This document shows positions 28,508 through 57,071 of a stretch of 64,000 nt of DNA, piece after piece (positions within the stretch are counted from its first letter, which is position 1; every line of letters begins with the position of its first letter). A program made the translations under genes and the position numbers. Below the pieces are notes generated by a model that did not search any database, was not told where the DNA came from, and saw only the letters and a program-made list of their open reading frames with translations. The stretch covers positions 109,381 to 173,380 of the forward strand of contig CAYSQJ010000004.1 of assembly GCA_964433345.1 (NCBI GenBank). Direction: 5' to 3'. Source of the stretch: an uncultured Bordetella sp. (GTDB taxonomy: Bacteria > Pseudomonadota > Gammaproteobacteria > Burkholderiales > SG8-41).

Positions 28508-28510
28508 CTT

Positions 28511-28543
28511 TATAAGTATTTGTTTTTATTGATATTTTTATAA
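28511..28543 (+). repeat. AT-rich intergenic repeat, copy A (forward)
   Basis: TATAAGTATTTGTTTTTATTGATATTTTTATAA begins 3 nt after the stop at 28507. It matches copies B-F. Confidence 0.8.
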
Positions 28544-28577
28544 TCCTCCACAGCGGCGCCCGGCGCCGCTGCCTGCA

Positions 28578-29546
28578 ATGAATTACGCCGCGCAACTGCT
28601 CGACCTGATGGTGCAGGTGATGCTGCCGCTGTCGCTGCTGGTCTGCGCCGGCGCGCTGTGGACGCGGTTTTTCCCGGACACCGACGTCGAGCAGATGCGC
28701 TCCAGCCTCAACCGGCTGGTGATGTATTTGTTCTATCCCTGCATCCTGTTCGCCGTGGCTTCGAGCACGCCGATCGACCGTGAGCTGCTGTCGGTGCCCT
28801 TGCTGGTGGGCATCGGCTCCCTGGTCTCCGGAGGCGTTCTCTACCTCCTGCTCTACCGTCTGCCGCTGTGGCCTCAGCTGACCGACCAGACACGCGCCGC
28901 GCTGATGCTTGGCGGCATGTTCGGCAACACCTTCAATATCGGCGCGCCGGTGCTGGTGTTTTTCTTCGGCGCGGAGGCGATCCGTTACGCGGTGTTCAAC
29001 GACATGCTGATGACGATGCCGCTGGTGTGGACGCTGGGCGTGTGGATCGCCACGCGCCTCGGTTCGCATGATCGCAGCGCCGCGCAGCCCTCGGTGATCG
29101 GCGTGATGCTGACGATGCCGCCGATCTGGGCTTTCCTGCTCGGCTTCGCCTGCCAGCAGACGGGGCTCAGCTACGAGCCGCTGGTCAAGGCGACACAGTT
29201 CATCGGCCAGGCGACGATTCCGGTGATCCTGTTCGTGCTCGGCATGACCATACCCTGGCGCAACCTGGTGCCGCGCGGCGAGATCCTCGCGGTGGCGGGC
29301 GTCAAGCTGCTGCTGACGCCCTTCATCATCTGGCTGGTCGCGCCGCTGATCTACCCGCGCATGGCCGAAGCGCAGTATGCCGCGGTGGTCGAGGGCACGA
29401 CGCCGGTGATGATGACTGCACTGCTGCTGGCCGACCGCTTCAGGCTTGATGCGCCGGCTGCGGCACTGCTGATCGGCTGGAGTACGATACTGTTCTGGCT
29501 GACGCTGCCGCTGATCATGGCCTTCGGCTGGATCGGCAGGTCTTGA
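28578..29546 (+). CDS. AEC (auxin efflux carrier) family permease
   Basis: 322-aa ORF with about 10 hydrophobic helices and the two-repeat architecture typical of AEC/membrane transport family proteins. Confidence 0.75.
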   Translation: MNYAAQLLDLMVQVMLPLSLLVCAGALWTRFFPDTDVEQMRSSLNRLVMYLFYPCILFAVASSTPIDRELLSVPLLVGIGSLVSGGVLYLLLYRLPLWPQLTDQTRAALMLGGMFGNTFNIGAPVLVFFFGAEAIRYAVFNDMLMTMPLVWTLGVWIATRLGSHDRSAAQPSVIGVMLTMPPIWAFLLGFACQQTGLSYEPLVKATQFIGQATIPVILFVLGMTIPWRNLVPRGEILAVAGVKLLLTPFIIWLVAPLIYPRMAEAQYAAVVEGTTPVMMTALLLADRFRLDAPAAALLIGWSTILFWLTLPLIMAFGWIGRS

Positions 29547-29560
29547 GAGGAGAATTTCAC

Positions 29561-30451
29561 TTGAACGTCGGATTCATAGGACTGGGCGCGATGGGGCGTC
29601 ACATGGCGCTGCACCTGATGAAAGGCGGCCATCGCATGGGCGTGTGGGCGCGCCGCGCCGAAAGCGCCGCGCCGCTGGTCGCTGCGGGCGCGACGCGCCA
29701 TGACACGCCGGCGGCGCTGGCTGCGGCATCGGATGTCGTGTTCACGATGGTCACCGCCTCGAGCGATTTCGAGCAGGTGGTGCTCGGCAATGAGGGCATC
29801 ATCCACGGCGCGAAGTCCGGCAGCGTGGTGGTCGACATGGAGACCATTTCGCCGGCGGTGGCGCGCGCGGTCGCGCGGCGGCTTGCGGAGAAGGGTATCG
29901 ACATGCTGGATGCGCCGGTGTCGGGCGGGCCGATGGGCGCCGAGCAGGCGACGCTGTCGATCATGGCCGGCGGCAAGGCGGAAGTTTTCGGGCGCGTGAA
30001 GCCGCTGTTCGAATGCATGGGCAAGACCGTGACCCGCGTCGGCGACAGCGGTGCCGGTCAGATTACCAAGGCCTGCAACCAGCTCGCGCTGCTGGTGGCG
30101 GCGCAGGGCGTCGCCGAATCGCTGCATCTTGCGCAACGCCTCGGTGCCGATCCGGCAAAGGTGCGTGAAGTGATGATGGGCGGCGTGGCCGCGAGCCGGG
30201 TGATGGAGCTTTTCGGCAAACGCATGGTGGAGCGCAACTTCGACAACGGCATCGACACCCGGCTCTACCACAAGGACCTTGGTATCGTGCTCGACCTTGC
30301 CCACGAGGCCTGCGTCGCCATGCCCGCCGGCGCGCTGGTGCTGCAGCAGATCAACGCGCTGATGGGGCAGGGGCGCGGCCGCGACGACCTCGGCGTGCTG
30401 ATCACGATCCTCGAAACCATGTCGGGCCCGGGCGGCCCGCGGGAGAAATGA
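29561..30451 (+). CDS. NAD(P)-dependent 3-hydroxyacid dehydrogenase (tartronate-semialdehyde / 3-hydroxyisobutyrate reductase family)
   Basis: TTG at 29561 follows a GAGAGGAG RBS (the ORF opens at 29543). VGFIGLGAMGRHMALHL Rossmann motif, DAPVSGG and KACNQ motifs. Confidence 0.85.
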   Translation: MNVGFIGLGAMGRHMALHLMKGGHRMGVWARRAESAAPLVAAGATRHDTPAALAAASDVVFTMVTASSDFEQVVLGNEGIIHGAKSGSVVVDMETISPAVARAVARRLAEKGIDMLDAPVSGGPMGAEQATLSIMAGGKAEVFGRVKPLFECMGKTVTRVGDSGAGQITKACNQLALLVAAQGVAESLHLAQRLGADPAKVREVMMGGVAASRVMELFGKRMVERNFDNGIDTRLYHKDLGIVLDLAHEACVAMPAGALVLQQINALMGQGRGRDDLGVLITILETMSGPGGPREK

Positions 30452-30452
30452 G

Positions 30453-31427
30453 ATGAGCTTCACGCAACCCGAACCGGCCACTCCGCGCCTGACCCGCTCC
30501 GAACTGGCGGTACCCGGCATCAACACGGCGATCTTCGGGAAGGCCGCCAAATCCGCCGCCGATGTGATTTTCCTCGACCTCGAGGATGCCGTCGCGCCGG
30601 ATGACAAGCCGCAGGCACGCAAAAACGTTGTCGCCGCGCTGAACGACATTGACTGGGGCAGCAAGGTGATGGCGGTGCGCATCAACGGCCTTGATACCCA
30701 TTACATGTACCGCGACGTGGTTGACCTGGTCGAGAACTGTCCGCGCCTCGACATGCTGGTGATTCCGAAAGTCGGTGTGCCGGCAGACGTCTATGCGCTG
30801 GACATGCTGGTGACCCAGATCGAAACCGCGCAGGGGCGCAGCAAACGCATCGGCTTCGAGGCGCTGATCGAAACCGCGCTGGGAATGGCCAACATCGAAG
30901 CCATCGCCCAGTCGAGCCGCCGCCTTGAGGCGCTGGCCTTCGGTTCCGGCGACTTTGCGGCTTCGACCCGTGCGCGCACGACCATCATCGGCGGCCTGCA
31001 TCCGGAATACGGCGTGCTGTCGGACCGCGATGCCGAAGGCCGGCGTTCCTACCAGCAGACCGATCCCTGGCATGCGGCGCAGGCGCGGCTGCTGGTGGCC
31101 TGCCGCGCCTACGGCCTGCGGCCGATCGACGGGCCGTACGGCGATTTCAGGGACGCCGAGGGTTATCTTGCCGCCGCGCGCCGCGTCGCCGCGCTGGGTT
31201 ACGAAGGCAAATGGGCGATCCATCCATCGCAGATTGAAGCGGCGAATGCGGTATTCAGCCCTTCGCCGGAAGAAGTGGGGAAGGCGCGTCGCATCGTGGA
31301 CGCGATGGCGCAGGCCGCGCGCGAGGGCAAGGGCGCCGTGCAGGTCGACGGCCGGCTGGTCGACATCGCCAACATCCGTATGGCCCAGAACCTGCTGCAG
31401 AAGGCGGATGCGATATCCGGGCGCTGA
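30453..31427 (+). CDS. mcl: HpcH/HpaI-CitE family lyase, L-malyl-CoA/beta-methylmalyl-CoA lyase-like
   Basis: 324-aa ORF. FLDLEDAVAPDDK, VRINGLDT, IPKVG, GKWAIHPSQI and GRLVDIA blocks follow my recollection of Mcl-type lyases along the full length. Confidence 0.7.
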   Translation: MSFTQPEPATPRLTRSELAVPGINTAIFGKAAKSAADVIFLDLEDAVAPDDKPQARKNVVAALNDIDWGSKVMAVRINGLDTHYMYRDVVDLVENCPRLDMLVIPKVGVPADVYALDMLVTQIETAQGRSKRIGFEALIETALGMANIEAIAQSSRRLEALAFGSGDFAASTRARTTIIGGLHPEYGVLSDRDAEGRRSYQQTDPWHAAQARLLVACRAYGLRPIDGPYGDFRDAEGYLAAARRVAALGYEGKWAIHPSQIEAANAVFSPSPEEVGKARRIVDAMAQAAREGKGAVQVDGRLVDIANIRMAQNLLQKADAISGR

Positions 31428-31506
31428 GGTGCTACACCGCGGCGGCAAAATTGGCTAGACTGGATTCCCAGCCGGTGTCCGTCGGCAAACCCCGGAGGAG
31501 GGGATC

Positions 31507-31935
31507 ATGAAAACAGTCAGCCAGTTGTTGCAGGGCAAGGGCGGCAATGTGTGGTCGATATCCCCGGAGTCCAGCGTGTTCGACGCGCTGAAACTGATGG
31601 CGGAGAAGAACTGCGGCGCGTTGCTGGTGATGAGTGACGGCAAGCTGCGCGGCATCCTCTCCGAGCGCGACTATGCGCGCAAGGTCATTCTGCTCGGCAA
31701 GTCCTCCCATGAACTGTCGGTGAGCGAGATCATGTCGGACAAGGTGGTCTGCGTCCGTCCGTCGCAGACCGTCGACGAGTGCATGGCGTTGATGAGCAGC
31801 AAGCGTATCCGCCACCTTCCGGTCCTCGAGGGCGGCGAGGTCATCGGCGTGCTGTCGGTGGGCGATCTGGTCAAGGCGTTCATCGAGATGCAGCAGGAAA
31901 CCATACAGCAGCTCGAAAGCTACATTCACAGCTGA
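31507..31935 (+). CDS. CBS-pair domain protein
   Basis: 142-aa ORF with two CBS repeats (GALLVMSDGKLRGILSERD and HLPVLEGGEVIGVLSVGDL). GGAGGAGG RBS. Confidence 0.85.
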   Translation: MKTVSQLLQGKGGNVWSISPESSVFDALKLMAEKNCGALLVMSDGKLRGILSERDYARKVILLGKSSHELSVSEIMSDKVVCVRPSQTVDECMALMSSKRIRHLPVLEGGEVIGVLSVGDLVKAFIEMQQETIQQLESYIHS

Positions 31936-31980
31936 AACCCGGCGCCGGCCGGTCCGGTGCCTCATCCTGAGTCGATCACC

Positions 31981-32730
31981 ATGAAATTCGGCGCCATCAT
32001 CATCGGCGATGAGATCCTGTCGGGCAAACGCCAGGACAAGCACTTCGCCAAGGTCATAAGCACGCTCGGCGAGCGCGGCCTCGAGCTGTCCTGGGCCCGG
32101 TATCTGGGCGACGATCCGGAACTGATCACGGCCACGCTCAGACAGACCTTCGCCGGCACCGATGCCGTGTTCTGCTTTGGCGGCATCGGCGCGACGCCCG
32201 ACGACCATACCCGGCAGTGCGCCGCGCGTGCCGGGGATGTTCGCCTGAAACTGCATCCGCAGGCGGAAGCCGAGATACGTTCGCGTTTCGTCGACGACCC
32301 GAAAGGGGTGACGCCGCAGCGGCTGACGATGGGCGAATTTCCCGAAGGCGCGGAGATCATCCCCAACCCGTATAACCGCATTCCCGGATTCAGTTTCCGC
32401 AACCACCACTTCCTGCCGGGTTTTCCGGAGATGGCCTGGCCGATGATGGCCTGGGTGCTCGACCATCGTTATGGCGGACTCAGTGCCGAGCGCGCCGCCG
32501 AGGCGGCGATCATCGTGCGCGAGGCCGGCGAGAGCCAGTTGATCGAATTGATGAACGAATGCCTGCGTGCCTATCCGGCGCTGAAGGTGTTCAGCCTGCC
32601 GCGGGTGACGCCGGAGCGCTACATCGAGCTCGGCGTGCGCGGCAGCGCGGCGCAGGTGCCGCAGGCGATCGCAATGCTCCAGGCCGGCGTGAGCCGGCTG
32701 GGGTTTCCGTGGACGCCGGTGGCGGCCTGA
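31981..32730 (+). CDS. MoCF-biosynthesis/CinA-like molybdopterin-binding domain protein
   Basis: Start MKFGAIIIGDEILSGKRQD inside ORF 31957-32730. GGIGATPDD motif. Confidence 0.75.
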   Translation: MKFGAIIIGDEILSGKRQDKHFAKVISTLGERGLELSWARYLGDDPELITATLRQTFAGTDAVFCFGGIGATPDDHTRQCAARAGDVRLKLHPQAEAEIRSRFVDDPKGVTPQRLTMGEFPEGAEIIPNPYNRIPGFSFRNHHFLPGFPEMAWPMMAWVLDHRYGGLSAERAAEAAIIVREAGESQLIELMNECLRAYPALKVFSLPRVTPERYIELGVRGSAAQVPQAIAMLQAGVSRLGFPWTPVAA

Positions 32731-32752
32731 GATACCGGAACTGCCTTACATG

Positions 32753-32787
32753 AAAAAAGCCCCCGGAAAATTCCGGGGGCTTTTTGT
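32753..32787. terminator. Bidirectional rho-independent terminator
   Basis: AAAAAAGCCCCCGGaaaattCCGGGGGCTTTTTGTTT lies between convergent genes ending at 32730 (+) and 32814 (-). Confidence 0.85.
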
Positions 32788-32813
32788 TTGCTGCGGGCTG
32801 CGTGGAAAGCGGC

Positions 32814-33362
32814 TTACGCGGCTTTCTTGGTGGCCTTCTTCACCGACGCGGTCGCCTGCGTGGCGGCGGCTTCAAGATTGGACTGGGTGGCCTGGGCGAA
32901 CTGCTTGGCGACTTTCGACAGGTTGTCGTACGCGGAGTTGACGGCGGCGATACCCGACTTGATCGCGGCGATGCCGACTTCAGAGCCCGCCGGGGCGGTC
33001 TTCACCAGTTTGTCGAGGCCGGCGACGACTTCCTTGTTGAATTCGGCGACCTGGCCCTCGACCAGCTTGCCGAACTCGGCTTGCGTTTCGGTCGCGCAGT
33101 CGTACATGCTCTTGACGTAGGCGGTGGCTTTTTCCAGGCTCGGTTGCGCCATGTTGTCCTTCAGCGCGGCCAGTTGCTGGAAATCCTTGACGGCGGCCAG
33201 GGCTTTCGCGCCTTCGAAGCTGTCGGCAAAAGCGGCTTTGGTCGCTTTCAGCTGCAGCTCCATCATGCGCTCGGCGCCCTCGATCGCCACGCCGGCGAAT
33301 TTCATCGCGGCTTCGAGGTTGGCTTTGTTCAGTGCAATAAGTTGCTCGGGGGTCTGATACAT
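32814..33362 (-). CDS. phaP: Phasin (PHA granule-associated protein)
   Basis: 182-aa ORF. Ala/Lys/Glu-rich amphipathic sequence MYQTPEQLIALNKANLEAAMKFAGVAIEGAERMMELQLKATK is typical of the phasin family. AAGGAGA RBS. Confidence 0.85.
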   Translation of the reverse strand: MYQTPEQLIALNKANLEAAMKFAGVAIEGAERMMELQLKATKAAFADSFEGAKALAAVKDFQQLAALKDNMAQPSLEKATAYVKSMYDCATETQAEFGKLVEGQVAEFNKEVVAGLDKLVKTAPAGSEVGIAAIKSGIAAVNSAYDNLSKVAKQFAQATQSNLEAAATQATASVKKATKKAA

Positions 33363-33553
33363 GATTAATCTCCTTTAAAACTATATAGTTAGGAGGTTTA
33401 ACCCTCCGCTTTGGGTGCAGATATATTGCACCGCACAATTTGAATTATAGGGTCTGAAAGAGGCATGTCAAGGGTTGGGGCAAAATAAATATTGCATTGC
33501 AACATTCAAGGCAGGCAATCATCCATTTTGATACACTGGCTCGCGCAGCCTTT

Positions 33554-33587
33554 TTATAAAATATTGTTTATAATCAAATATTTATAA
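33554..33587 (-). repeat. AT-rich intergenic repeat, copy F (reverse)
   Basis: The plus strand reads TTATAAAATATTGTTTATAATCAAATATTTATAA. Its reverse complement aligns with copies A-E. It contains AATCAAATATTTA, which fits WATCAANNNNTTR. Confidence 0.7.
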
Positions 33588-33647
33588 TGCTCACTATCGG
33601 ATTATTAGTCCGACCAGAACCTTTTAACCGAAGACTGTGAAAACGCC

Positions 33648-33986
33648 ATGACCACCCTGTTCAGCAAGATCATTAACCGCGAAATCCCGGCCGACATCGT
33701 CTACGAAGATGAGCGCTGCCTGGCCTTCCGCGACATCAATCCGCAGGCGCCGATTCACGTATTGCTGATCCCGAAGCAGGAAATTCCGAAGCTGGCGGAT
33801 GCGGCGGACAGTGACCAGGCGCTGCTGGGCCATCTGCTGCTGGCTGCGGGCAAGGTCGCGCGGCAGCTCGGCGTGGGGGATGCCTTCCGCCTGGTGGTGA
33901 ACAACGGTGCCGGCGCCGGACAGACGGTGTTTCATCTCCATCTGCATCTTCTTGCCGGGCGACCTTTGCACTGGCCGCCGGGATGA
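33648..33986 (+). CDS. HIT-family nucleotide hydrolase (HinT-like)
   Basis: 112-aa ORF with histidine triad FHLHLHLL and N-terminus FSKIINREIPADIVYED. Confidence 0.9.
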   Translation: MTTLFSKIINREIPADIVYEDERCLAFRDINPQAPIHVLLIPKQEIPKLADAADSDQALLGHLLLAAGKVARQLGVGDAFRLVVNNGAGAGQTVFHLHLHLLAGRPLHWPPG

Positions 33987-35570
33987 TCAGTCGACGACCA
34001 GTGTCGGCAGTTCGATCGTGAACTGCACCCCGCTGCCGTCCGCAAGGTCGGTGGCGCTGGCGCGGCCGCGGTGGAATTCGGCCACCAGGCGAACGATGTA
34101 CAGGCCCAGCCCGAGATGAATGTCGGGCGCCTGTGCCTTGCGTGCGGATTGCATTGATTCGAACAACTGCAGGTCCGCAGGCAGTCGCGGGCCGCGGTTG
34201 CTCACCGTGAGCAGGGCGGTGGTGCCGCGCATCGCCAGCGCTACCGTCACCGGTGTGCCCGGCTCGGCGAAATCAGCGGCGTTGGCGGCGAGCTTGTCGA
34301 GCATCTGCGCGAAGAGTTGCGGGGCGCCATTGAGCATCACCGGATGTCCCGGCAGCTGCAGCTCGAAACGGCGTTCAGGATAGGCGGCGGAGTAGCCCGC
34401 GACACAGCCGGCCAGCACTGCGGCCGCATCGTAGCGTTCTCGCGCGCTGTCGCGCACCGCCTGCTCCAGCCGGGTGGCTTCCGCCATACGCGTCAGCACG
34501 GTGTCGAGCCGGTGCAGGCCGTCTTCCGCCCGCTCCAGGTACACGCCGCTGTCTGCAGGCAGCCCCTTCAGCCGCAGGTTGTCCAGAGAGGAGCGCAGCA
34601 CCGCGAGCGGCGTGCGCAGTTCGTGGGCGAGGCGGCGGGCGAGGTTTTCAAGGTAGGCGTTGGTGTCGGCCAGCCGCTTCAGCGCGAGCGAAAAGCTGCG
34701 CGAGAGGTCGCCGATTTCGTCACGCGCCGTGCTCGCGGACACCAGGGCTCGCACCTGTCCGCGGGAGTCGATGGCCTGTTCCGCCTCATCTCGCAGGCGC
34801 CTCAGCCGCAGCGACAGCCGCGAGGCGAACAGCAGCAGCACCAGCGCCGCCGCGCCGAAGGCGATCAGGGTGACCGCGATCAGCCGCTCGATCGCGCGGT
34901 GGCGGAATGAGACCGCGGCAGCCGTGCTTTCCTCGACGATGGCAACGCCGACGACGGTTTCGCCGATCCACACCGGCTGGGTGACGCTGACGATGGGCGG
35001 GCTGCCGCCGGGACCCGGCCGGCGCCGTGTGGAAGCGGCGCCATCAAGCGCGCGCTCGATCTCGCGCCCGCCGAAAATGAGGTCATCGGGGATGAATTCC
35101 TCCGCCGGCAGTGCAGGCGCATCGAGCCAGCGCGCCAGCAGGGGCCGCAGCACGGCGCGTACCGCATGTTCGACGACCCCGAAGGTGGTTTCGGCGCCGG
35201 TGCTTCCGCTGTCGCCGGCGATGTCACCGGCCACCGCAATCAGCTGCAGCCGGCGATCCACAACCCAGATGCGCAGGCCGGCGCGGGCGATGCCGGTGAC
35301 CAGCGTGCGTACTTCGGCGCGCGCTGCCTCGCCGTCTGCGGAGTCCTCCTGCAGGATGGCCAGCCGCGGCCGGTCGTGCAGCGCCGCCGCGATGGCACGC
35401 GCCGCTGCCGAGAGCTGGCGTTCCTGCTGTTCGCGCAGCAGCTGTTCGGTGGCACTGACATAGGAGTAACCGGCCCAGGGAATGACCAGCAGGACCAGCG
35501 CCACCAGCACGATGCGGCCGCGCAGCCCGATCGCGGGCAGCGCCCGGGAGTTCAGTCCGAGCTCCGCCAC
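33987..35570 (-). CDS. Sensor histidine kinase
   Basis: C-terminal part of ORF 33987-36341. A GTG at 35570 overlaps the regulator stop. One N-terminal helix, a periplasmic region and a second helix. H-box HELRTPLAVL and ATPase motifs (VSNRGPRLP, GLGLYIV). Confidence 0.8.
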   Translation of the reverse strand: MAELGLNSRALPAIGLRGRIVLVALVLLVIPWAGYSYVSATEQLLREQQERQLSAAARAIAAALHDRPRLAILQEDSADGEAARAEVRTLVTGIARAGLRIWVVDRRLQLIAVAGDIAGDSGSTGAETTFGVVEHAVRAVLRPLLARWLDAPALPAEEFIPDDLIFGGREIERALDGAASTRRRPGPGGSPPIVSVTQPVWIGETVVGVAIVEESTAAAVSFRHRAIERLIAVTLIAFGAAALVLLLFASRLSLRLRRLRDEAEQAIDSRGQVRALVSASTARDEIGDLSRSFSLALKRLADTNAYLENLARRLAHELRTPLAVLRSSLDNLRLKGLPADSGVYLERAEDGLHRLDTVLTRMAEATRLEQAVRDSARERYDAAAVLAGCVAGYSAAYPERRFELQLPGHPVMLNGAPQLFAQMLDKLAANAADFAEPGTPVTVALAMRGTTALLTVSNRGPRLPADLQLFESMQSARKAQAPDIHLGLGLYIVRLVAEFHRGRASATDLADGSGVQFTIELPTLVVD

Positions 35571-40910: not shown

Positions 40911-40996
40911 GGGGCCGGTCTCATGTCCAGGAGTGCGTTGTGACGCGAGACATAATACCGGGCCTCCGTTGCGGCGCCAGTGCTGTTTGCGGCGTG

Positions 40997-41037
40997 AATA
41001 TTAAAATATATTTTAAAAACAAATACTTATAAATATT
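40997..41037 (-). repeat. AT-rich intergenic repeat, copy B (reverse)
   Basis: The plus strand reads AATATTAAAATATATTTTAAAAACAAATACTTATAAATATT. The reverse complement begins TATAAGTATTTGTTTTT, identical to copy A over 17 nt. It lies 17 nt downstream of the qor-like stop. Confidence 0.75.
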
Positions 41038-41054
41038 CCGCTGTGCCGGCTGCA

Positions 41055-46797: not shown

Positions 46798-47907
46798 ATG
46801 AAGACCCGAGCCGCCGTAGCCCACAAGGCCGGAGCGCCGCTGACCATCGAAACCGTCGACCTCGACGGCCCGCGCGCGGGCGAGGTGCTGGTCGAGATCA
46901 GGGCCACCGGCATCTGCCACACCGACGAGTTCACGCGCTCGGGCGCCGATCCCGAGGGCATCTTCCCGGCGATCCTCGGTCACGAGGGTGCGGGCGTGGT
47001 GGTTGATATCGGCCCCGGCGTCACCAGTCTGAAGAAGGGTGATCACGTGATCCCGTTGTACACGCCGGAATGCCGGCAATGCGAGTATTGCCTCAGTGGC
47101 AAGACCAATCTCTGCCAGGCGATCCGCGTCACCCAGGGCCAGGGCGTGATGCCGGACGGCAGCAGCCGCTTCTCGATCGGTGGCGACAAGGTGTTCCATT
47201 ACATGGGGACTTCGACCTTCGCCAACCACACCGTGGTGCCGGAGATCGCGCTCGCCAAGATCCGCGAGGACGCGCCCTTCGACAAGGTCTGCTACATCGG
47301 TTGCGGCGTCACCACCGGCATCGGCGCGGTGATCAACACCGCGAAAGTCGAGCCCGGTGCCAATGTCGTGGTTTTCGGCTTGGGTGGCATCGGCCTCAAC
47401 GTGATCCAGGGCGCGCGCATGGCCGGCGCCAACATGATCGTCGGCGTCGATCTCAATCCCTCACGCAAGCCGCTGGCGGAAAAATTCGGCATGACCCATT
47501 TCGTCAACCCGAAGGAAGTCGAAGGCGACCTGGTGCCGTACCTGGTCAATCTGACCAGGGGCGGCGCCGACTACAGCTTTGAATGCATCGGCAACGTCGA
47601 CGTCATGCGCCAGGCGCTGGAGTGCTGCCACAAGGGCTGGGGCGTGTCGGTGATCATCGGCGTCGCCGGGGCAGGGCAGGAGATCAAGACCCGGCCCTTC
47701 CAGCTGGTCACGGGCCGCGTGTGGAAAGGCACGGCCTTCGGCGGCGCCAAGGGCCGCCGCGATGTGCCGAAGATTGTGGACTGGTACATGGACGGCAAGA
47801 TCAACATCGACGACCTGATAACGCACAAGCTGAAGCTGGAAGACATCAACAAGGGGTTTGATCTGATGCACTCCGGGGAGTCGATACGAAGTGTCGTGGA
47901 GTTTTGA
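46798..47907 (+). CDS. adhC: S-(hydroxymethyl)glutathione dehydrogenase / class III alcohol dehydrogenase
   Basis: 369-aa ORF. GICHTDEFTRSG, GHEGAGVV and the CxxCxxC..C structural zinc motif (CRQCEYCLSGKTNLC). Confidence 0.9.
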   Translation: MKTRAAVAHKAGAPLTIETVDLDGPRAGEVLVEIRATGICHTDEFTRSGADPEGIFPAILGHEGAGVVVDIGPGVTSLKKGDHVIPLYTPECRQCEYCLSGKTNLCQAIRVTQGQGVMPDGSSRFSIGGDKVFHYMGTSTFANHTVVPEIALAKIREDAPFDKVCYIGCGVTTGIGAVINTAKVEPGANVVVFGLGGIGLNVIQGARMAGANMIVGVDLNPSRKPLAEKFGMTHFVNPKEVEGDLVPYLVNLTRGGADYSFECIGNVDVMRQALECCHKGWGVSVIIGVAGAGQEIKTRPFQLVTGRVWKGTAFGGAKGRRDVPKIVDWYMDGKINIDDLITHKLKLEDINKGFDLMHSGESIRSVVEF

Positions 47908-47911
47908 TCGG

Positions 47912-47950
47912 AATATTTTAAATACCTGATTTTATTGATATTTTTAAGAT
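47912..47950 (+). repeat. AT-rich intergenic repeat, copy C (forward)
   Basis: AATATTTTAAATACCTGATTTTATTGATATTTTTAAGAT begins 4 nt after the adhC stop. It is flanked by CGGAA...TTCCGG. Confidence 0.8.
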
Positions 47951-48017
47951 TTCCGGCTGCTTGGTCCTGTTGTTATACAATGTCATACGTTTTGTGTGAA
48001 GTACAAGGAGGTGTGCC

Positions 48018-48230
48018 ATGCTGGCCGTAAGGCTCGAGAAACAACTGGAAGCCGCGATTACACGTATTGCCGAAGCGACCGGCAGCACCAAGAGCAGCGT
48101 GGTGCGGGAAGCCGTGGTGCGTTATCTGGAAGACCGGGAGGACATCCTGCTTGCCGAACAGGCGCGCAAGGCAGGCGGCCGCGCGAAATCCATCGCCGAG
48201 GTCAGGAAGTCGCTTGGCCTGGACGGTTGA
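48018..48230 (+). CDS. relB: Ribbon-helix-helix antitoxin (RelB/CopG-like)
   Basis: 70-aa ORF. MLAVRLEKQLEAAITRIAEATGSTKSSVVREAVVRYLE is an RHH fold pattern. AAGGAGG RBS. Confidence 0.8.
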   Translation: MLAVRLEKQLEAAITRIAEATGSTKSSVVREAVVRYLEDREDILLAEQARKAGGRAKSIAEVRKSLGLDG

Positions 48231-48486
48231 GATTTCCGCGTTCGCGCAGAGGCAGCTCGCGAAGCTTGATCGTCCGGCAGCGGCGCGCATCCTCGACTGG
48301 CTGGAGTCGAGACTGGAAGGGCAGGGCAATCCCCGGCATTTTGGTGAAGCGCTGCGCGGGGAACTCGCCGGCCTGTGGCGTTATCGAATCGGTGACTTTC
48401 GCGTCATCTGCGAGATCCAGGATCAGCGGCTGGTTGTTCACGCGCTGTCCATCGGCCATCGCCGGGAAATTTATCGCAAGCGCTAA
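48214..48486 (+). CDS. relE: RelE/ParE-family toxin
   Basis: TTG at 48214 inside ORF 48067-48486 overlaps the antitoxin end. AWTVEISAFAQRQLAKLD...WRYRIGDFRVICEIQDQRLVVHALSIGHRREIY is the RelE/StbE pattern. Confidence 0.8.
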   Translation: MAWTVEISAFAQRQLAKLDRPAAARILDWLESRLEGQGNPRHFGEALRGELAGLWRYRIGDFRVICEIQDQRLVVHALSIGHRREIYRKR

Positions 48487-48513
48487 ATCAGCACGAACCC
48501 TCTTGATATCTCG

Positions 48514-50007
48514 ATGAGTCTCAGCTTCGACAACAGCTACGCCCGCGATCTCGAAGGCCTCTACGTGCCGTGGAAGGCAGCGGAGGTGCCGCAGCCGAAG
48601 CTGATCCGGCTCAACCATGCGCTGGCCGAAGAACTAGGGCTCGACGCCGCTTCTCTGGATTCCCCCGAAGGCGCGCAACTCTTCTCCGGCAACCAAATCC
48701 CCGAAGGCACGGCCACCATCGCCCAGGCCTACGCCGGCCACCAGTTCGGCGGTTTCTCGCCGCAGCTCGGCGACGGCCGTGCGCTGCTGCTGGGCGAGGT
48801 CATTGACCAGCAGGGCAGACGCCGCGACATAGCGTTCAAGGGTTCCGGACGCACGCCGTTTTCACGCGGTGGTGACGGCAAGGCGGCGCTGGGGCCGGTG
48901 CTGCGTGAATACATCATCGGCGAGGCGATGCATGCGCTGGGCATCCCGACTACCCGCGCATTGGCGGCGGTGACCACCGGCGAATTCGTGCGTCGTGAAC
49001 GCAACCTGCCGGGGGCGGTGCTGACGCGGGTCGCGGCTAGCCACGTCCGGGTCGGGACTTTCCAGTTCGCCGCCGCGCGCGGTGACGAGGCCTTGCTGAA
49101 AAAACTTGCCGATTACGTGATCGACCGCCATTACCCGGAGGTCGGGGGCGCGGACAAACCGTATTTTGAATTGCTGCGCGCCCTCTGCGAGCGGCAGGCG
49201 GCGCTGATTGCGCGCTGGATGAACGTGGGCTTCATCCACGGCGTGATGAACACCGACAACATGACGCTCTCCGGCGAGACCATCGACTACGGACCTTGCG
49301 CCTTCATGGACCGTTACGATCCGAAGACCGTGTTCAGCTCCATCGATGAATACGGGCGTTATGCCTATGTCAACCAGCCGCCGATCGCCAACTGGAACCT
49401 TGCGCGCTTCGCCGAGGCGCTGCTGCCGCTGCTGATCGGCGAGAGCGGCGGCGAACAGGACAGGGCGGTGGAGCGGGCGATGGAAATCCTCGGCGATTTC
49501 CAGTCGTGTTACGAGCAGCACTGGCTGGCCGGCATGCGTGCGAAGCTCGGACTGACGCGCGGGGAGGATGGTGACCTCGAACTGGCGCAGGATTTTCTCG
49601 CCGGCATGGAAGGGCAGGGTGTCGATTTCACGCTGGCCTTCCGCCGGCTGGCCGATGCCGCTGAAGCGGCGGATGCTTCGCGCGAGGGCTGGCTGCGGCA
49701 GCTCTATGCGGACGATGCGAAACTCGATGCCTGGCTGCCGCGCTGGCGCGCGCGCATCAATGCCGAAGGCATCGATCCCGCGCGACGCGCAATTGCGATG
49801 CGCGGCGTGAATCCGCTCTACATTCCGCGCAATCACAAGGTCGAGGAAGCGCTCGATGCCGCGGTTGCACTCGGCAATTACGAACCGTTCGAGCGATTGC
49901 TCGCCGTTTTGCAGCAACCCTACACTGAAAAGCCGGAATGGGCGGCCTATGCCGAGCCGGCGACTGCGGAAGCCTCCGCCGGTTATCGCACCTTCTGCGG
50001 CACATAA
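48514..50007 (+). CDS. selO: Protein adenylyltransferase SelO (YdiU/UPF0061)
   Basis: 497-aa [64 protein letters not shown]. Confidence 0.9.
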
Positions 50008-50042
50008 TATAAATACTTGATTATATTGATATTTTTGTAAAT
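50008..50042 (+). repeat. AT-rich intergenic repeat, copy D (forward)
   Basis: TATAAATACTTGATTATATTGATATTTTTGTAAAT is contiguous with the selO TAA stop. It lies between convergent genes. Confidence 0.8.
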
Positions 50043-50047
50043 CTGCG

Positions 50048-51587: not shown

Positions 51588-52808
51588 TCAGGCGCGGACG
51601 TCGGCGATGTGGAAGCCGGCGTAGGTGTGGACGCGATCCTCGCGGTTGAGTCGCGCCGCGAGCCCGGGGTGGAAATCCAGCAGTTCGCGCAGGCGGCGGC
51701 CGCGGCCCGCGCCCGGCACGGTCAGCGTGTCGAGGTAGGCGGGCTGTGCGTGGGAGCTGCGGAAGATCGCGCGCGCGCCGGGCGCCGCGCAGTCGAGCAG
51801 GGCGGCCCATTCCTCGCGCAGGGCTTCGGGTTTGAACGAGCCCAGCCAGTCCATGTGGTCGAGCAGCACGAATTTCGAAATCTGCGGCTGCTTGTCGCGC
51901 AGCAGTTCGGTGACCGTGCAGGTATGGTGGGTAATGCGGTCCGCGAGACCGTTTTTCAGCGCGAGGAAATTGCCGCGTTTGAGGTACTCGGGACAGCAGT
52001 CGCGGCTGTAGCTGCCGCGCACATAGACCCGCCAGAAATAGTTGGTCCACAGCGGCAGGCTGCGGAACACGTATTCCACGGCTTCGCGCACGAATCCGGG
52101 TACGCCGCCGGCGTGCTGGCGGCGCACTTCCTCGTGCTGGGGTGCAGGCACGCCGAGCATGCTCATAGTGATTTGCCGCGACAGCGCCCAGTTGACGCCG
52201 CGGTTCCACATCCGCGGCGCTACGCGCGCGTCGTAGATGCTGCATTGTTCGTCGAGCGATTTCGCCTCGACCAGTTCATCGACCGCATCGCGCAGTTTCG
52301 GCTGCAGGTCGAGGTAATGGCGGAACAGCAGCGCGACGCGGCCTGACAGGCTGTGGAAATAGAAGGTGTTGCGCGGATTGCTGCGGCTGAACCAGTCGCC
52401 GGCGCCGTCCCAGAACTGCTTCGCGAAGGGCGACAGTTCGCGCCGCAGCAGGTCGCGGTACAGTTCCGGGAAATGCGGGTGCCGGCCTTCGCCGAAGAGC
52501 ATGAAAAAATCGGTGTGCGACAGGCGGCGGATGCCGGCCAGCTTCAGTTCCAGCAGCGCGGTCTGCCGCGGATTGGCGTCGACAGCGTGGATACGCTTCG
52601 GTCCGGCCAGCGCATAGTCCAGCACGTTGCAGCCGGCGCTGGTGATCACCAGGATCGTGTCCTCCGCGGTAATGCTCAGCGCCTGCCGGTCCACCGCCGG
52701 ATCTTCCCAGCAGGTGTTGTAGATCAGCGAGCGGGAATACAGCGCATCGAACACTTTCTGGTTCATGCGCTCGCTCATGCGTTTTGTCAGTGAGCTGCTC
52801 AAAGTCAT
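51588..52808 (-). CDS. btaA: DUF3419/BtaA-like S-adenosylmethionine:diacylglycerol 3-amino-3-carboxypropyl transferase
   Basis: 406-aa ORF. LIYNTCWEDPAVDRQAL, ITSAGCNVLDYAL and HAVDANPRQTALLELK match the BtaA-type family pattern. The start could be a downstream Met. Confidence 0.7.
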   Translation of the reverse strand: MTLSSSLTKRMSERMNQKVFDALYSRSLIYNTCWEDPAVDRQALSITAEDTILVITSAGCNVLDYALAGPKRIHAVDANPRQTALLELKLAGIRRLSHTDFFMLFGEGRHPHFPELYRDLLRRELSPFAKQFWDGAGDWFSRSNPRNTFYFHSLSGRVALLFRHYLDLQPKLRDAVDELVEAKSLDEQCSIYDARVAPRMWNRGVNWALSRQITMSMLGVPAPQHEEVRRQHAGGVPGFVREAVEYVFRSLPLWTNYFWRVYVRGSYSRDCCPEYLKRGNFLALKNGLADRITHHTCTVTELLRDKQPQISKFVLLDHMDWLGSFKPEALREEWAALLDCAAPGARAIFRSSHAQPAYLDTLTVPGAGRGRRLRELLDFHPGLAARLNREDRVHTYAGFHIADVRA

Positions 52809-52816
52809 TGATTGCT

Positions 52817-52904
52817 CTCCGGATTCGACGCGATCAGCCTAAGCGTGGATTGTTGCCGTGGTATGACCTGCGGATTGCGGAATGGCGTCAACGCGCTGCG
52901 GATT
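52817..52904. promoter_or_regulatory. Four direct CTGCGGATT-like 9-mers in the btaA/pabB divergent intergenic region
   Basis: CTCCGGATT (about 52817), GCGTGGATT (about 52843), CTGCGGATT (about 52868) and CTGCGGATT (about 52896). Spacing is 25-28 bp. Confidence 0.4.
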
Positions 52905-52919
52905 CATTAAAATGCGGCA

Positions 52920-54311
52920 ATGACCATCCCGCTGCTGACCGAACTGCCGTACCGCGAGGACAGCGCCGCGCTGTTCGAGGCGGTTGCGGACCGGCCGTGG
53001 GCAGTGTTTCTCGACAGCGGCCTGCACCACCCGGGGCAGGCGCGTTACGACATCATTGCCGCCGACCCGCATGTGCGGCTGGTCACCCGCGGCGCGCTGA
53101 CCGAAATCCATGACGAGGCGAGCGAGCTGTCGCGCGCCGATCCCTTCGAACTGCTGCGCGGGCGGCTCTGTTTCGAGCCAGGCTGTGCCGGCGACCTGCC
53201 TTTCGCCGGCGGCGCGATCGGTTATTTCGGTTATGACCTCGCTCGCCGCATCGAGCGCCTGCCGCTGCGTGCGCGGGCCAGCGAACGCATCCCCGACATG
53301 GCCGTCGGCATCTACGACTGGGCCGTCGTGGTCGATCATTCCGAACGCCGCGCCTGGCTCGCCGGGCAGGGGCGTGATCCGGACACCGACCGCAAATGGG
53401 ACGCGCTGGTGCGGCTGTTCAGCGCCACCCCCGCCGAACGCCAGCGCACCCCCTTCCGGGTGACTTCGCCGGTGACCTCGAATTTCACGCCCAAGGGTTA
53501 CGGGCACGCCTTCGACCGTGTACTGGGCTATATCCGTGCCGGCGACTGTTACCAGGTCAACCTCGCACAGCGTTTCATCGCCCAGGCCAGCGGCGATCCC
53601 TGGCTGGCCTACCAGCGGCTGCGGCTGATCAATCCGGCGCCGTACTCGGCCTATTTCAGCACGCCCTATGCACAGATCCTGTCGGCCTCGCCGGAGCGTT
53701 TCCTGCGCGTGCAGGACGGTGCGGTGGAGACCAAGCCGATCAAGGGCACGCGGCCGCGCGCCGGGCATGCCCGGCTCGACGCCGAGCGCATTGCCGAATT
53801 GCTGGCGAGCGAGAAGGACCGCGCCGAGAACCTGATGATCGTCGACCTGTTGCGCAACGACCTGTCGAAGAACTGCGCCACCGGCACGGTGAAGGTGCCC
53901 AAGCTGTTCGAGGTCGAGAGTTTCGCCACCGTGCACCACCTGGTGAGCACGGTGACCGGGAAGCTGAAGCCAGGGAGTGACGCGATCGACCTGCTGCGCG
54001 GCGCTTTCCCCGGCGGCTCGATCACCGGCGCGCCGAAGCTGCGCGCGATGCAGATCATCGAGGAACTGGAGCCGCACCGCCGCGGCGTCTATTGCGGGGC
54101 CATCGGCTACATCGGACACGACGGCGGCATGGATACCAACATCGCGATCCGCACCCTGGTGCATTCCGGGGGCACGGTGCGGCTGTGGGCCGGCGGCGGC
54201 ATTGTCGCCGATTCGCAGTGCGAAGCCGAGTACCAGGAAACCTTCGACAAGGCAGCCGCCCTGTTGAGCCTGCTGCAGCAGAGCGCGGAAAGCGCCAGCG
54301 GCGGCGCCTGA
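52920..54311 (+). CDS. pabB: Aminodeoxychorismate synthase component I
   Basis: 463-aa ORF. Chorismate-binding family motifs SPERFL, KGTRPR, FPGGSITGAPK and RGVYCGAIGY. Size and N-terminus fit PabB rather than TrpE. Confidence 0.85.
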   Translation: MTIPLLTELPYREDSAALFEAVADRPWAVFLDSGLHHPGQARYDIIAADPHVRLVTRGALTEIHDEASELSRADPFELLRGRLCFEPGCAGDLPFAGGAIGYFGYDLARRIERLPLRARASERIPDMAVGIYDWAVVVDHSERRAWLAGQGRDPDTDRKWDALVRLFSATPAERQRTPFRVTSPVTSNFTPKGYGHAFDRVLGYIRAGDCYQVNLAQRFIAQASGDPWLAYQRLRLINPAPYSAYFSTPYAQILSASPERFLRVQDGAVETKPIKGTRPRAGHARLDAERIAELLASEKDRAENLMIVDLLRNDLSKNCATGTVKVPKLFEVESFATVHHLVSTVTGKLKPGSDAIDLLRGAFPGGSITGAPKLRAMQIIEELEPHRRGVYCGAIGYIGHDGGMDTNIAIRTLVHSGGTVRLWAGGGIVADSQCEAEYQETFDKAAALLSLLQQSAESASGGA

Positions 54312-54312
54312 A

Positions 54313-54330
54313 CCGTCATCTTCCCGTAAC
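54313..54330 (+). promoter_or_regulatory. Pho-box-like site upstream of phoX
   Basis: CCGTCAT-CTTC-CCGTAAC: two 7-bp direct repeats with 11-bp periodicity, resembling CTGTCAT-N4-CTGTCAT. It lies 44-61 nt upstream of the phoX ATG. Confidence 0.45.
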
Positions 54331-54373
54331 GGATGCACCGTATTGTCCGCGCTTCCATTTCAAGGGAGCGCAA

Positions 54374-56305
54374 ATGAGCCACAGCTACAGCGACGGGCGC
54401 AGCCTCAACGGCTCGCCGAATGCCACGTTTGAACAGGTCCTGGAGGCGCGCTTGTCGCGCCGGGGGCTGCTGAAGGGCGCCGCCGCGCTGGCGGCGATTT
54501 CCGCGCTGCCGCTGTCGCTGGGGGCCTGCGCCACGACCGGCCTGCGGCGCGAGGGCCGGCTCGGTTTCAGCGGCATCACGGTTTCAACGGCCGATGCGGT
54601 TCGTGTCCCCGCAGGGTATTCGGCGAAGGTGCTGTATGCCTGGGGCGATCCGGTCGGCCACCCTTCCGGCTCGCCCGCCTTCCGTCATGACGCCGGCAAC
54701 AGCGCCGCCGAGCAGGCGCTGCAGGCGGGCATGCACCATGATGGCATCCATTATTTTCCGCTGCCCTACGGCTCGGAGAATTCCGCCAGCGGCCTGCTGG
54801 TGATGAATCACGAATACACCGATGACGGCCTGCTGCACAGCGACGGATTCGCCAACTGGAGCGCGGAGAAGGTGCGCAAGGCGCAGAACGCCCACGGCTG
54901 TTCGGTGATCGAGGTGCGTGCCACGGCCGGCGGCCAGTGGGAAGTCGTGCGGCCCTCGCGTTATGCGCGGCGCATCACCGCGGCGACGCCGATGCGCATT
55001 GCCGGTCCGGCTGCGGGCAGCGCCGGCATGAAGACCGCCGCCGATCCCGCGGGCAACGAAGTGCTGGGCACCTTCAACAACTGTGCCCACGGTTACACGC
55101 CCTGGGGGACGTACCTGACCTGCGAGGAAAACTGGGACACCTACTTCGCAAACATCGGTACGCTGACCGCGGACCAGCGGCGCAATGGCGTGACGGCGAA
55201 GGGCCGCGGTTACCGCTGGGAGGAGTTCGACGAGCGTTTTGATGCGGGCAAGCATCCCAACGAACCCAACCGCCACGGCTGGGTGGTGGAGTTCGATCCC
55301 TATGATCCGCAGTCGAAACCGGTCAAACGTACCGCGCTCGGCCGTTTCAGCCACGAGGGCGCCTGGCCGGCCACGGCGAAGGACGGCCGGTTGGTGATCT
55401 ACATGGGAGATGACCGGGCCTTCGAGTACATTTACAAGTTCGTGTCGCGCGACGCGTACAGCCGCAGCGACCGCAAGGCCAATGCCAAGCTCCTCGACCA
55501 TGGCACGCTGTACGTCGCGAAGTTCAATGATGACGGCAGCGGCGAATGGATTCCGCTGGTGCATGGCCGCGGCAAACTGACCGCTGCCAACGGTTTTGCC
55601 GACCAGGCCGACGTGTTGATTCGCACGCGTGCCGCGGCCGACGCCGCCGGCGCGACGAAAATGGACCGTCCGGAATGGATCGCGGTGCATCCGGCGACAA
55701 ACGAGGTGTACTGCACACTGACCAACAACAGCCAGCGCGGCGGCAAGGATCGCCCCGGTACCGACCGCGCCAATCCGCGGGCCAACAACGTGTTCGGCCA
55801 GATCATCCGCTGGCGCGAGGCCGGCAACGATCCGGCCGGGATGAAATTCGAATGGGACCTGTTTGCAATCGCCGGTGATCCGCAGCATCCTGACCCGGCG
55901 CGCCACGGCAACATCAAGGGCGACGCCTACGGCAGTCCCGACGGCCTGTGGTTCGATGACGGCGGCCTGCTGTGGATACAGACCGATGTGTCGGCGAGCA
56001 CGCAGAACCGCAATCATTACGAACGGCTGGGCAACAACCAGATGCTGGCCGCAGACATCCGCAGCGGCGAGACCCGGCGTTTCCTGACCGGGCCGAGCGG
56101 CAGTGAGGTGACGGGGGTTGTTACCACTCCGGACGGGCGTACGATGTTCGTCAATATCCAGCATCCGGGCGAAGCGCCGAAAGGACGCAACGACCCGAAA
56201 AATCCGAAGGCGCACAGCAGCTGGCCCGACGGCGCCGCCGGCGGCCGGCCGCGCTCGGCGACACTGGTCATCCGCAGGAACGACGGCGGCATCATCGGCA
56301 GCTGA
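54374..56305 (+). CDS. phoX: PhoX-family alkaline phosphatase (Tat-exported)
   Basis: ATG at 54374 follows AAGGGAG (within ORF 54092-56305). Tat signal LSRRGLLKGAAALAA. MNHEYTD, FNNCAHGYTPWGTYLTCEEN, DRPEWIAVHP and SPDGLWFD blocks are typical of PhoX/DUF839. Confidence 0.88.
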   Translation: MSHSYSDGRSLNGSPNATFEQVLEARLSRRGLLKGAAALAAISALPLSLGACATTGLRREGRLGFSGITVSTADAVRVPAGYSAKVLYAWGDPVGHPSGSPAFRHDAGNSAAEQALQAGMHHDGIHYFPLPYGSENSASGLLVMNHEYTDDGLLHSDGFANWSAEKVRKAQNAHGCSVIEVRATAGGQWEVVRPSRYARRITAATPMRIAGPAAGSAGMKTAADPAGNEVLGTFNNCAHGYTPWGTYLTCEENWDTYFANIGTLTADQRRNGVTAKGRGYRWEEFDERFDAGKHPNEPNRHGWVVEFDPYDPQSKPVKRTALGRFSHEGAWPATAKDGRLVIYMGDDRAFEYIYKFVSRDAYSRSDRKANAKLLDHGTLYVAKFNDDGSGEWIPLVHGRGKLTAANGFADQADVLIRTRAAADAAGATKMDRPEWIAVHPATNEVYCTLTNNSQRGGKDRPGTDRANPRANNVFGQIIRWREAGNDPAGMKFEWDLFAIAGDPQHPDPARHGNIKGDAYGSPDGLWFDDGGLLWIQTDVSASTQNRNHYERLGNNQMLAADIRSGETRRFLTGPSGSEVTGVVTTPDGRTMFVNIQHPGEAPKGRNDPKNPKAHSSWPDGAAGGRPRSATLVIRRNDGGIIGS

Positions 56306-56328
56306 GTTGGCGTTTATCAGGAATCATT

Positions 56329-56387
56329 GCCCCGGCACGGCACTAAGGAGGTCCCTTTGAGGGGAGGCCGGGGCCCAGAAAGTTTTT
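56329..56387 (+). terminator. Probable rho-independent terminator after phoX
   Basis: GCCCCGGC...GCCGGGGC outer stem with inner TCCCtttgaGGGA, followed nearby by GTTTTT. Confidence 0.5.
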
Positions 56388-56488
56388 CGGTTTAATCGTA
56401 CGTTTGTTGGATGCTGGCTTTCGCCGGCGGTGTCCGGCTTCCCGCGGATTTGTGCCATCATCGCGTTTCCTACGAAGGGAGTGCGACG

Positions 56489-56665
56489 ATGGCTGTCTTG
56501 GAATTGACGCAGGAAAATTTCGAATCGACGATCACCGGCAACAAAATGGTGATCGTGGATTTCCGGGCGCCGTGGTGCGGGCGCGCGCCGCGACTCGTTA
56601 GCCGCAGGCCCGTTTGCGGGAGCGGCGCGCCAGGGGCCGCAAGCCGATCACTGGACAGGAGCTGA
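56489..56665 (+). pseudogene. Decayed 5-prime thioredoxin fragment / thioredoxin-derived upstream ORF
   Basis: MAVLELTQENFESTITGNKMVIVDFRAPWCG parallels the first 31 residues of the downstream thioredoxin (about 85 percent nucleotide identity over about 93 nt by my hand alignment). It then diverges and CGPC is lost (WCGRA). It has its own GAAGGGAG RBS and ends 4 nt before the trx ATG. Confidence 0.6.
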
Positions 56666-56669
56666 GACC

Positions 56670-57038
56670 ATGCCTGTTCTGGAACTGACGCAGCAGAATT
56701 TCGAGAGCACGATCACCGGCAACAAAATCGTGATCTTGGATTTCTGGGCGCCGTGGTGCGGCCCCTGCAAAAGTTTTGCGCCGGTGTTCGAGGCTGCCGC
56801 GGAAAAACACCCCGACGTGGTGTTCGCCAAGGTCAATTCGGACGACGAGCAGGCACTGGCCGGTCATTTCGGCATCCGCTCGATTCCGACCATCATGCTG
56901 TTCCGCGAACAGATCATCGTGTTCATGCAGGCGGGTGCCTTGCCGGCCTCGGGACTGGAGAGCGTGCTAGAGCAGGCGAAGGCGCTGGACATGGAGCAGG
57001 TGCGCCGCGACATCGCTGCGCAGCAGTCGCAGCAGTAA
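56670..57038 (+). CDS. trx: Thioredoxin
   Basis: 122-aa ORF with WAPWCGPCK active site and the IRSIPT cis-Pro loop. Confidence 0.9.
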   Translation: MPVLELTQQNFESTITGNKIVILDFWAPWCGPCKSFAPVFEAAAEKHPDVVFAKVNSDDEQALAGHFGIRSIPTIMLFREQIIVFMQAGALPASGLESVLEQAKALDMEQVRRDIAAQQSQQ

Positions 57039-57071
57039 AAATATCAATAAAATCAAATACTTATAATTTAT
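57036..57071 (-). repeat. AT-rich intergenic repeat, copy E (reverse)
   Basis: The plus strand reads TAAAAATATCAATAAAATCAAATACTTATAATTTAT and includes the trx TAA stop. Its reverse complement TATAAGTATTTGATTTTATTGATATTTTTA is the closest copy to the family consensus. It contains AATCAAATACTTA. Confidence 0.8.

Follow-up and report, generated by a model that had tools for sequence, protein, structure and literature searches.

The DNA considered here is a 64,000-nt stretch of an uncultured Bordetella sp. (contig CAYSQJ010000004.1, positions 109,381 to 173,380), referred to below as the window. It carries six copies of a short AT-rich element, all of them intergenic, each of which contains the predicted core of a binding site for integration host factor (IHF). 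The window has a G+C content of ~ 65%, and the six copies are nearly its only stretches of at least 30 bp with a G+C content of 20% or less. Alignment of the copies gave TTATAAGTATTTG(A/T)TTTTATTGATATTTTTA, and the reverse-strand consensus of the element is 5'-TAAAAATATCAATAAAATCAAATACTTATAA-3'. The copies, designated c1 to c6, and their flanking genes are as follows.

28508..28545, plus strand: c1, core 28511-28539 (TATAAGTATTTGTTTTTATTGATATTTTT), predicted IHF core AAACAAATACTTA on the minus strand; between a 2-hydroxyacid dehydrogenase gene (stop 28507) and a Mem_trans gene (start 28578).
33554..33589, minus strand: c2, the most divergent copy, core 33558-33586, predicted IHF core AATCAAATATTTA; between the divergent phasin and HIT genes, ~ 85 bp upstream of the phasin promoter's -35.
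40997..41037, minus strand: c3, of the 'TTTTTAAAA' sub-type, core 41003-41031, predicted IHF core AAACAAATACTTA; between an ADH gene (stop 41055, minus strand) and a GGDEF gene (start 40910).
47912..47950, plus strand: c4, core 47917-47945, predicted IHF core AATCAGGTATTTA; between an ADH gene (stop 47907) and an RHH/ParE toxin-antitoxin pair (48018-48486).
50005..50042, plus strand: c5, core 50008-50036, predicted IHF core AATCAAGTATTTA; directly after the TAA stop of the SelO gene, filling the 40-bp gap to a convergent metallophosphoesterase gene (stop 50048).
57036..57071, minus strand: c6, core 57037-57065, predicted IHF core AATCAAATACTTA; the TAA stop of a thioredoxin gene (57036-57038) forms the end of the element, and a hydrolase gene starts at 57100.

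An initial annotation of this DNA had reported six copies, and every one was recovered at the coordinates it gave. The distances it listed to the stop codons at 28507, 47907, 50007, 57038 and 41055 were also correct. The TAA stop that it counted as part of two copies was located inside or directly abutting the element at c5 and c6, and the copy that it placed between convergent genes is c5, which separates SelO from the metallophosphoesterase gene.

A 29-nt degenerate pattern, TWTAARTAYYTGWTTWTAWWVWWWWTTTT, was built from the six window copies and covers all of them. It matched the window at exactly six places (28511+, 33558-, 41003-, 47917+, 50008+ and 57037-), a number that remained unchanged with three mismatches permitted, compared to no matches in 100 dinucleotide-preserving shuffles. 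An nhmmer profile search of the window likewise returned no copy beyond the six and none before 28 kb. The reported absence of copies from the first 28 kb therefore holds as an observation, but its significance is at most marginal (P ~ 0.04, post hoc) because that part of the window, consisting largely of tightly packed operons, holds only ~ 10 of the roughly 27 window gaps of at least 39 bp. The copies are very similar to each other, as demonstrated by c1 and c6, which are identical at 30 of 31 positions and differ by one base. An additional left flank, CGGAATATTT, is common to c3 and c4 (40990-41045 and 47905-47960). The c3 and c4 flanks are able to pair across the element (fold z = -3.3 for c3), a pairing not seen in the family at large, and the extra flank may mark a longer sub-type.

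The anatomy of the element was compared with that of a canonical IHF site, which spans ~ 34 bp and comprises four elements: WATCAA, a TTR four bases downstream, two AA steps nine bp apart at which proline intercalation occurs and an A-tract (4-6 A, 5' half) that the best sites possess (PMC1874591; 10.1101/382655). Only 15-17 of the 34 positions are constrained (PMC1874591). The H' site of lambda attP is a canonical IHF site with a co-crystal structure (Rice et al. 1996, as cited in PMC1874591). The H' string AAAAAAGCATTGCTTATCAATTTGTTG, confirmed as a contiguous sequence in a paper, aligned with the element without gaps, position for position. The element and H' share an A-tract that begins 14 bp 5' of W, an AA/TT step at -5/-4, and (W)ATCAA followed by four free bases and TTR. 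This four-element layout at H' spacing was found in all six window copies, with AAACAA in place of AATCAA in c1 and c3, and in 0.1-0.3% of composition-matched shuffles. The WATCAA(R) core is exact in c2, c4, c5 and c6 and carries the single AAACAA mismatch in c1 and c3. A TTA lies four free bases beyond WATCAA in 6/6 copies, the AA/TT step at -5/-4 from W is likewise present in 6/6, with the second step inside WATCAA, and the H'-like A-tract reads AAAAA(T)A.

The strict IHF 13-mer was present in 4/6 copies vs ~ 1% of shuffles. The initial annotation had described this 13-mer as exact or with one mismatch in every copy, which agrees with the exact matches in c2, c4, c5 and c6 and the one-mismatch forms in c1 and c3. 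Its more general proposal, a fit to the IHF consensus, was borne out more strongly than it had been put, as the copies carry all four elements at H' spacing and conservation tracks the IHF consensus. The 9-bp-phased TTGATnnnnTTGAT that it assigned to every copy was only partly upheld: it is exact in c5 and c6 and one base off in c1 and c4; c2 and c3 lack it. This 9-bp-phased TTGAT is a pair of predicted IHF kink sites. A separate IHF consensus, AATCAATTAATTA, independent of the element and outside the repeat family, is located in a 100-bp AT-rich divergent intergenic region at 63502-63600.

A collection of species-representative genomes was scanned with the 29-nt pattern and the copy loci were read as 8-kb blocks. 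The element was found in at least 115 stretches, so that the scan of relatives proposed in the initial annotation places the family well beyond the window and shows that it is not peculiar to this genome. The listed matches came overwhelmingly from Gallionellales and from metagenome-assembled genomes (MAGs) of uncultured Burkholderiales or 'Betaproteobacteria', the MAGs originating from lakes, streams and groundwater. A few AT-rich genomes, in which chance matches are expected, were also among the matches listed. At least 19 assemblies hold two to ten copies each, situated on different contigs at non-orthologous sites with unrelated neighbour genes, and a profile search of ~ 750 kb of loci added ~ 20 copies. 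Among the loci listed, the closest relatives of the window were JALHND01 'Bin_52_4' (88-93% nucleotide identity), JAHCAI01 (86-90%) and JAIETP01 (~ 78%). Similarity between copies ends sharply, with a near-invariant 29-nt core flanked by only ~ 3-6 unspecific A/T bases. The sub-types TTATTGATA and TTAAACAAT recur across loci, as do the sub-type endings …TTATTGATATTTTT and …TTAAACAATATTTT, and a variant ending in …TTGAATATTTT is found in Gallionellales. A pattern scan of IMG/VR gave 2 hits in 2.9 million viral contigs, BLAST searches of plasmids, phages and E. coli genomes with the consensus gave chance-level hits only, in AT-rich taxa, and a literal sequence search of the literature returned no match to the element string.

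Conservation was examined among diverged copies and among orthologous copies. Perfect matches to the 29-mer consensus accounted for 26 of the 150 copies lying within nine mismatches, and 41 diverged copies were gathered with a position-neutral cut-off of at most nine mismatches to the 29-mer. The only invariant bases in this set are A4, A5, T11 and G12, while T3, T14, T15 and A18 are nearly invariant. Positions 6-9, which form the N gap, and positions 21-25 are variable, and the T-run at positions 26-29 is kept. Expressed on the IHF strand, CAA (= TTG) and AA (= TT of TTR) are invariant and the gap positions are free. The resulting pattern, YAANNNNTTGATW, is WATCAANNNNTTR in reverse complement, the 5' half being looser, a known asymmetry of IHF sites.

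Orthologous copies displayed the same distribution of change. The tally of substitutions, from comparisons that took in c5 with L125 and L118/L120, c6 with L113, and c2 with L031 and L013, was 12 at the four N positions and 1 at the nine consensus positions, the latter a permitted T to C change at Y, with 16 at the remaining 16 positions. Since substitutions pile up in NNNN and spare the consensus, there is purifying selection on exactly the positions of the IHF consensus. Individual copies illustrate the result: the 29-nt core of c1 is identical at the orthologous sites of L031 and L013 (three genomes, with identities of ~ 78-90%, down to ~ 78%) while the intergenic flanks diverge, the c2 orthologues in the same two loci retain YAANNNNTTGATT alone, and c6 is conserved in L113 with two changes, one in NNNN and one at a W position.

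Genes were called in all GC-rich loci by third-position GC content and their orientation was recorded in the frame of the element, giving 29 same/same, 27 opposite/opposite, 18 convergent and 11 divergent arrangements. The mixed orientation noted within the window thus extends across the loci, where both orientations are equally frequent between co-directional genes. Orientation being random relative to the flanking genes, the element acts as DNA and not as RNA. A signal at the level of RNA or transcription (a promoter, UP element, terminator, AU-rich leader, processing site or small RNA) would suit the loci at which the element ends a few bases before a ribosome-binding site or ATG, and would suit the location of c2 in a promoter region. 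The equal orientations and the copies between convergent genes argue against an RNA-level or promoter-type function, and the searches for such signals point the same way. A sigma-70 scan (-35/-10 hexamers, 16-18 bp spacing) gave a single weak 9/12 hit, at c3, and a terminator scan (GC hairpin plus T-run) found no terminator-like site at any of the six copies. Folding of all copies on both strands gave energies equal to shuffles in 5/6 (z about 0), the exception being c3, whose flanks pair. No Rfam match at gathering threshold was returned for the whole window, and sigma-54 promoters showed no association with the element (1 hit in 43 kb near elements vs 10 in 690 kb elsewhere). A regulon test covered the 54 genes with a 5' end facing an element; they scatter over 89 Pfam families with no enrichment beyond the lineage-typical TctC and amidohydrolases, which argues against a regulon operator. 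An RNA-level or transcription signal is accordingly considered extremely improbable. These results agree with the initial annotation in that terminator-like hairpins are lacking and a pure promoter role is unlikely, but they do not support the specific 3'-end role that it had raised, because orientation is random with respect to transcription and terminator features are absent. The simplest explanation for the proximity to stop codons is that intergenic gaps are short and tolerate an element beside a 3' end.

Several other features of the window were also recorded. A perfect sigma-70 consensus, TTGACA-16-TATAAT (12/12), is located at 33444-33471 on the minus strand, upstream of the phasin gene (33362 to 32814), and conserved TGC-rich repeats (…TATATTGCACCGCACAAT…, …TATTGCATTGCA…) lie between c2 and this promoter and may be PhaR-type operators. 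The toxin-antitoxin pair between c4 and SelO is of type II and consists of an RHH/DUF6290 antitoxin (48018-48230) and a ParE toxin (48223-48486); a 173-aa open reading frame (ORF) at 47996-48517 in the program-made list overlaps this pair and was rejected as spurious. L093 and similar relatives have another gene after the element where the window has the toxin-antitoxin pair. Next to c6, two tandem thioredoxin-like genes (56411-56665 and 56670-57038) have a 99-nt stretch in common at 85% identity, a duplication also found in L113. Elsewhere in the window, at 9287-22036, long inverted repeats of 64-109 nt (71-76%) link two oppositely oriented multi-gene membrane-protein clusters, which look like paralogous Mrp/NADH-dehydrogenase-type antiporter operons.

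The element is probably explained as a family of canonical IHF docking sites, dispersed and under selection, with an architectural role as DNA. Each copy would be a high-affinity canonical site for IHF, a heterodimeric DNA-bending protein, or for the IHF/HU-family equivalent of this lineage. The A-tract on the TAAAAATATCAATAAAATCAAATACTTATAA strand would take one protein clamp, the two AA steps 9 bp apart would receive the two proline intercalation kinks, and WATCAA would be followed by TTR four bases on, so that IHF, once bound, would bend the DNA between the genes into a U-turn. The median length of the AT block, 36 bp, is matched to such a site of roughly 34 bp. The sites, flanked by housekeeping genes unrelated to one another, would function as double-stranded DNA whichever way they face, and their role would most likely be architectural, as a fixed nucleoid-protein anchor or an insulator between transcription units and not as a gene-specific switch. 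Binding of IHF to the element, along with the effect of that binding, is what we infer from its anatomy.

Several observations weigh against this explanation. AAACAA replaces AATCAA in about half of all copies, departing from the consensus T. Identity between copies, such as the 30/31 of c1 and c6, is far above the level that 15-17 constrained positions would impose on an IHF site, and this excess calls for something more, either a copying mechanism, a stricter lineage-specific protein preference or a second protein. Sub-types and lineage variants recur across loci as would be expected of copied elements; these, along with the perfect-consensus copies, rule out independent convergence as the source of near-identical copies. 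The architectural function is also something we infer, and the role of even the IHF sites in the RIP repeats of E. coli, compared below, is unsettled.

The most substantial of the other explanations, considered unlikely overall, is that the element is a very small non-autonomous mobile or copied element that carries, or simply is, an IHF site as a host-factor site. Its copies would have arisen by transposition, or through insertion, templated or site-specific, at AT-rich places, TAA stops for example. IHF binding is equally allowed by this explanation, the sole difference being the reason for which the copies exist. It would account for near-identical copies at unrelated loci and across genera and for the recurring sub-types and lineage-specific variants. 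Several further observations hint at turnover. At the L093 site orthologous to that of c4, after the ADH gene, the element is present in the opposite orientation to that of the window. Both the window and 7/13 relatives (77-92% protein identity) have an element 0-120 nt downstream of SelO, and the gene after SelO varies among relatives (L116-L135), being a convergent metallophosphoesterase gene, a co-directional alpha/beta hydrolase gene or others, with the shift in synteny coinciding exactly with the element. In ~ 40% of copies a flanking stop codon lies inside the core or at most 10 nt away, and six flanking ORFs extend 14 nt into the element before their stop. On the other side, no terminal inverted repeats were found, the first G/C base on each side being without mirror symmetry, and target-site duplications of k = 3-6 at the tested boundaries were not in excess (best 8/101 vs 3.6 expected), a 2-bp TA duplication not being judgeable in AT-rich flanks. 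With the lack of a hairpin, these results leave the mobile-element footprint suggested in the initial annotation unsupported. A length of 30-36 bp is far under the size of a miniature transposable element with inverted repeats (MITE), no transposase was present among the 25 most frequent Pfam families of neighbouring genes, the viral, plasmid and phage searches were nearly empty or at chance level, and the orthologous copies are old and stably kept. In its most developed form the idea is of a free-standing unit of 30-36 bp whose copies reach further intergenic sites and cross from genus to genus among uncultured Burkholderiales and Gallionellales, the copying leaving no terminal inverted repeats, hairpin or target duplication. 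IHF would perhaps be its only recognisable cofactor, and the host may have domesticated it as a signal for chromosome architecture or for a rearrangement hotspot, since synteny breaks and the toxin-antitoxin insertion adjoin copies. This form of the idea is doubtful; if true, the element would represent a new class of micro-repeat whose entire body is one IHF site, and its interest would rise if copies prove to be actively propagated.

A site for a different sequence-specific protein, such as an OmpR/PhoB-type regulator on the TTGATnnnnTTGAT direct repeat, a Fur/ArgR/FNR-like protein, or an H-NS/MvaT-type silencer on AT-rich DNA, is rather improbable. The 9-bp direct repeat TTGATWTTW in many copies, the presence of an AT island of the kind preferred by H-NS-like proteins within 65% GC DNA, and conservation reaching beyond the classical IHF consensus would fit such a site. 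However, G12 is invariant while the G21 of the second repeat is retained in just 19/41 diverged copies, an asymmetry that misfits a tandem dimer, and H-NS-type binding would not predict an invariant AA...TG with a free 4-bp gap. The neighbour genes also form no regulon and some copies lie between convergent genes. The inverted-repeat boxes of FNR, ArgR and Fur misfit the element, and Fur, ArgR, FNR/CRP, Ter/Tus, dif/Xer and parS were all rejected by inspection because their inverted-repeat or unrelated consensus sequences do not match. That the element serves natural transformation in these freshwater Betaproteobacteria as a DNA uptake (self-recognition) sequence is very improbable. The occurrence of the element in either orientation, its lineage 'dialects' common to related genera, and its ~ 30-bp, partly AT-rich form, which recalls the uptake signal sequence (USS) of Pasteurellaceae, would agree with it. 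Known uptake sequences occur about once per kb and also inside genes, whereas the element is strictly intergenic with a density of ~ 1 per 10 kb in the window (six in 64 kb) and lower in the loci, and IHF explains its internal conservation in detail.

Comparison with described repeat families gave no family to which the element belongs, which agrees with the initial annotation, where no described REP, BIME, Correia or uptake-sequence family was recognised in it. It is almost pure A/T and not a GC-rich palindrome of the repetitive extragenic palindrome (REP) type, with a fold z of about 0 in 5/6 copies. RIP/RIB (BIME-1) architecture is absent, as the flanks share nothing conserved beyond ~ 6 AT-rich bases and form no consistent hairpin. 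MITE or Correia features are lacking, as the edges show no mirror symmetry and flanking direct repeats (k = 3-6) are not in excess. Low density and exclusively intergenic copies are at odds with DNA uptake sequences (DUS/USS).

Among known systems, the element resembles lambda H' in being a site on the ~ 34-bp scale with conservation concentrated in one half. H' is however single-copy and inside a recombination locus, whereas the element is dispersed, multi-copy and near-identical between copies, half of which carry AAACAA. Correia elements of Neisseria and other MITEs with an IHF site (reviewed in PMC2229807 and PMC3184786) are also small intergenic repeats that include an IHF site and often abut or alter gene ends. 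They differ in being 100-150 bp long with terminal inverted repeats and a TA duplication, while the element is 30-36 bp and has neither.

The E. coli RIP/RIB (BIME-1) repeats consist of a REP, a 34-bp L motif with an IHF site, and an inverted REP. The sequence of NC_000913 5565-5669, which we take to be RIP1 (the current K-12 RefSeq record no longer lists RIP features), was read directly: a REP is followed by an L motif of 34 bp, which contains the core CAATATATTGAAT and a T-run, and then by an inverted REP. In the L motif, CAATATATTGAAT and the T-run are at a spacing similar to that in the element. Both families are extragenic, multi-copy IHF sites of ~ 34 bp, predicted ones in the case of the element, that occur chiefly where the neighbouring genes are co-directional or convergent, with no link to particular genes. 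The element differs in having no flanking REP palindromes, in showing no sequence homology to E. coli, and in belonging to a different lineage. To our knowledge, dispersed IHF sites in enterobacteria are known only within composite REP elements, and their role is debated. The best reading is that the element would be functionally like the L motif of RIP/BIME-1, yet stand-alone. Within the GC-rich genomes that carry it, the element could explain AT islands and odd gene ends to annotators, and the 29-nt pattern is usable as a metagenome marker for the lineage. Stand-alone, lineage-wide IHF-site repeats are a new form among known IHF-site repeats, and this family, under clear purifying selection and common to many uncultured freshwater Burkholderiales and Gallionellales, offers a cleaner system for studying the purpose of IHF anchor points in the chromosome and the multiplication of such short sequences.

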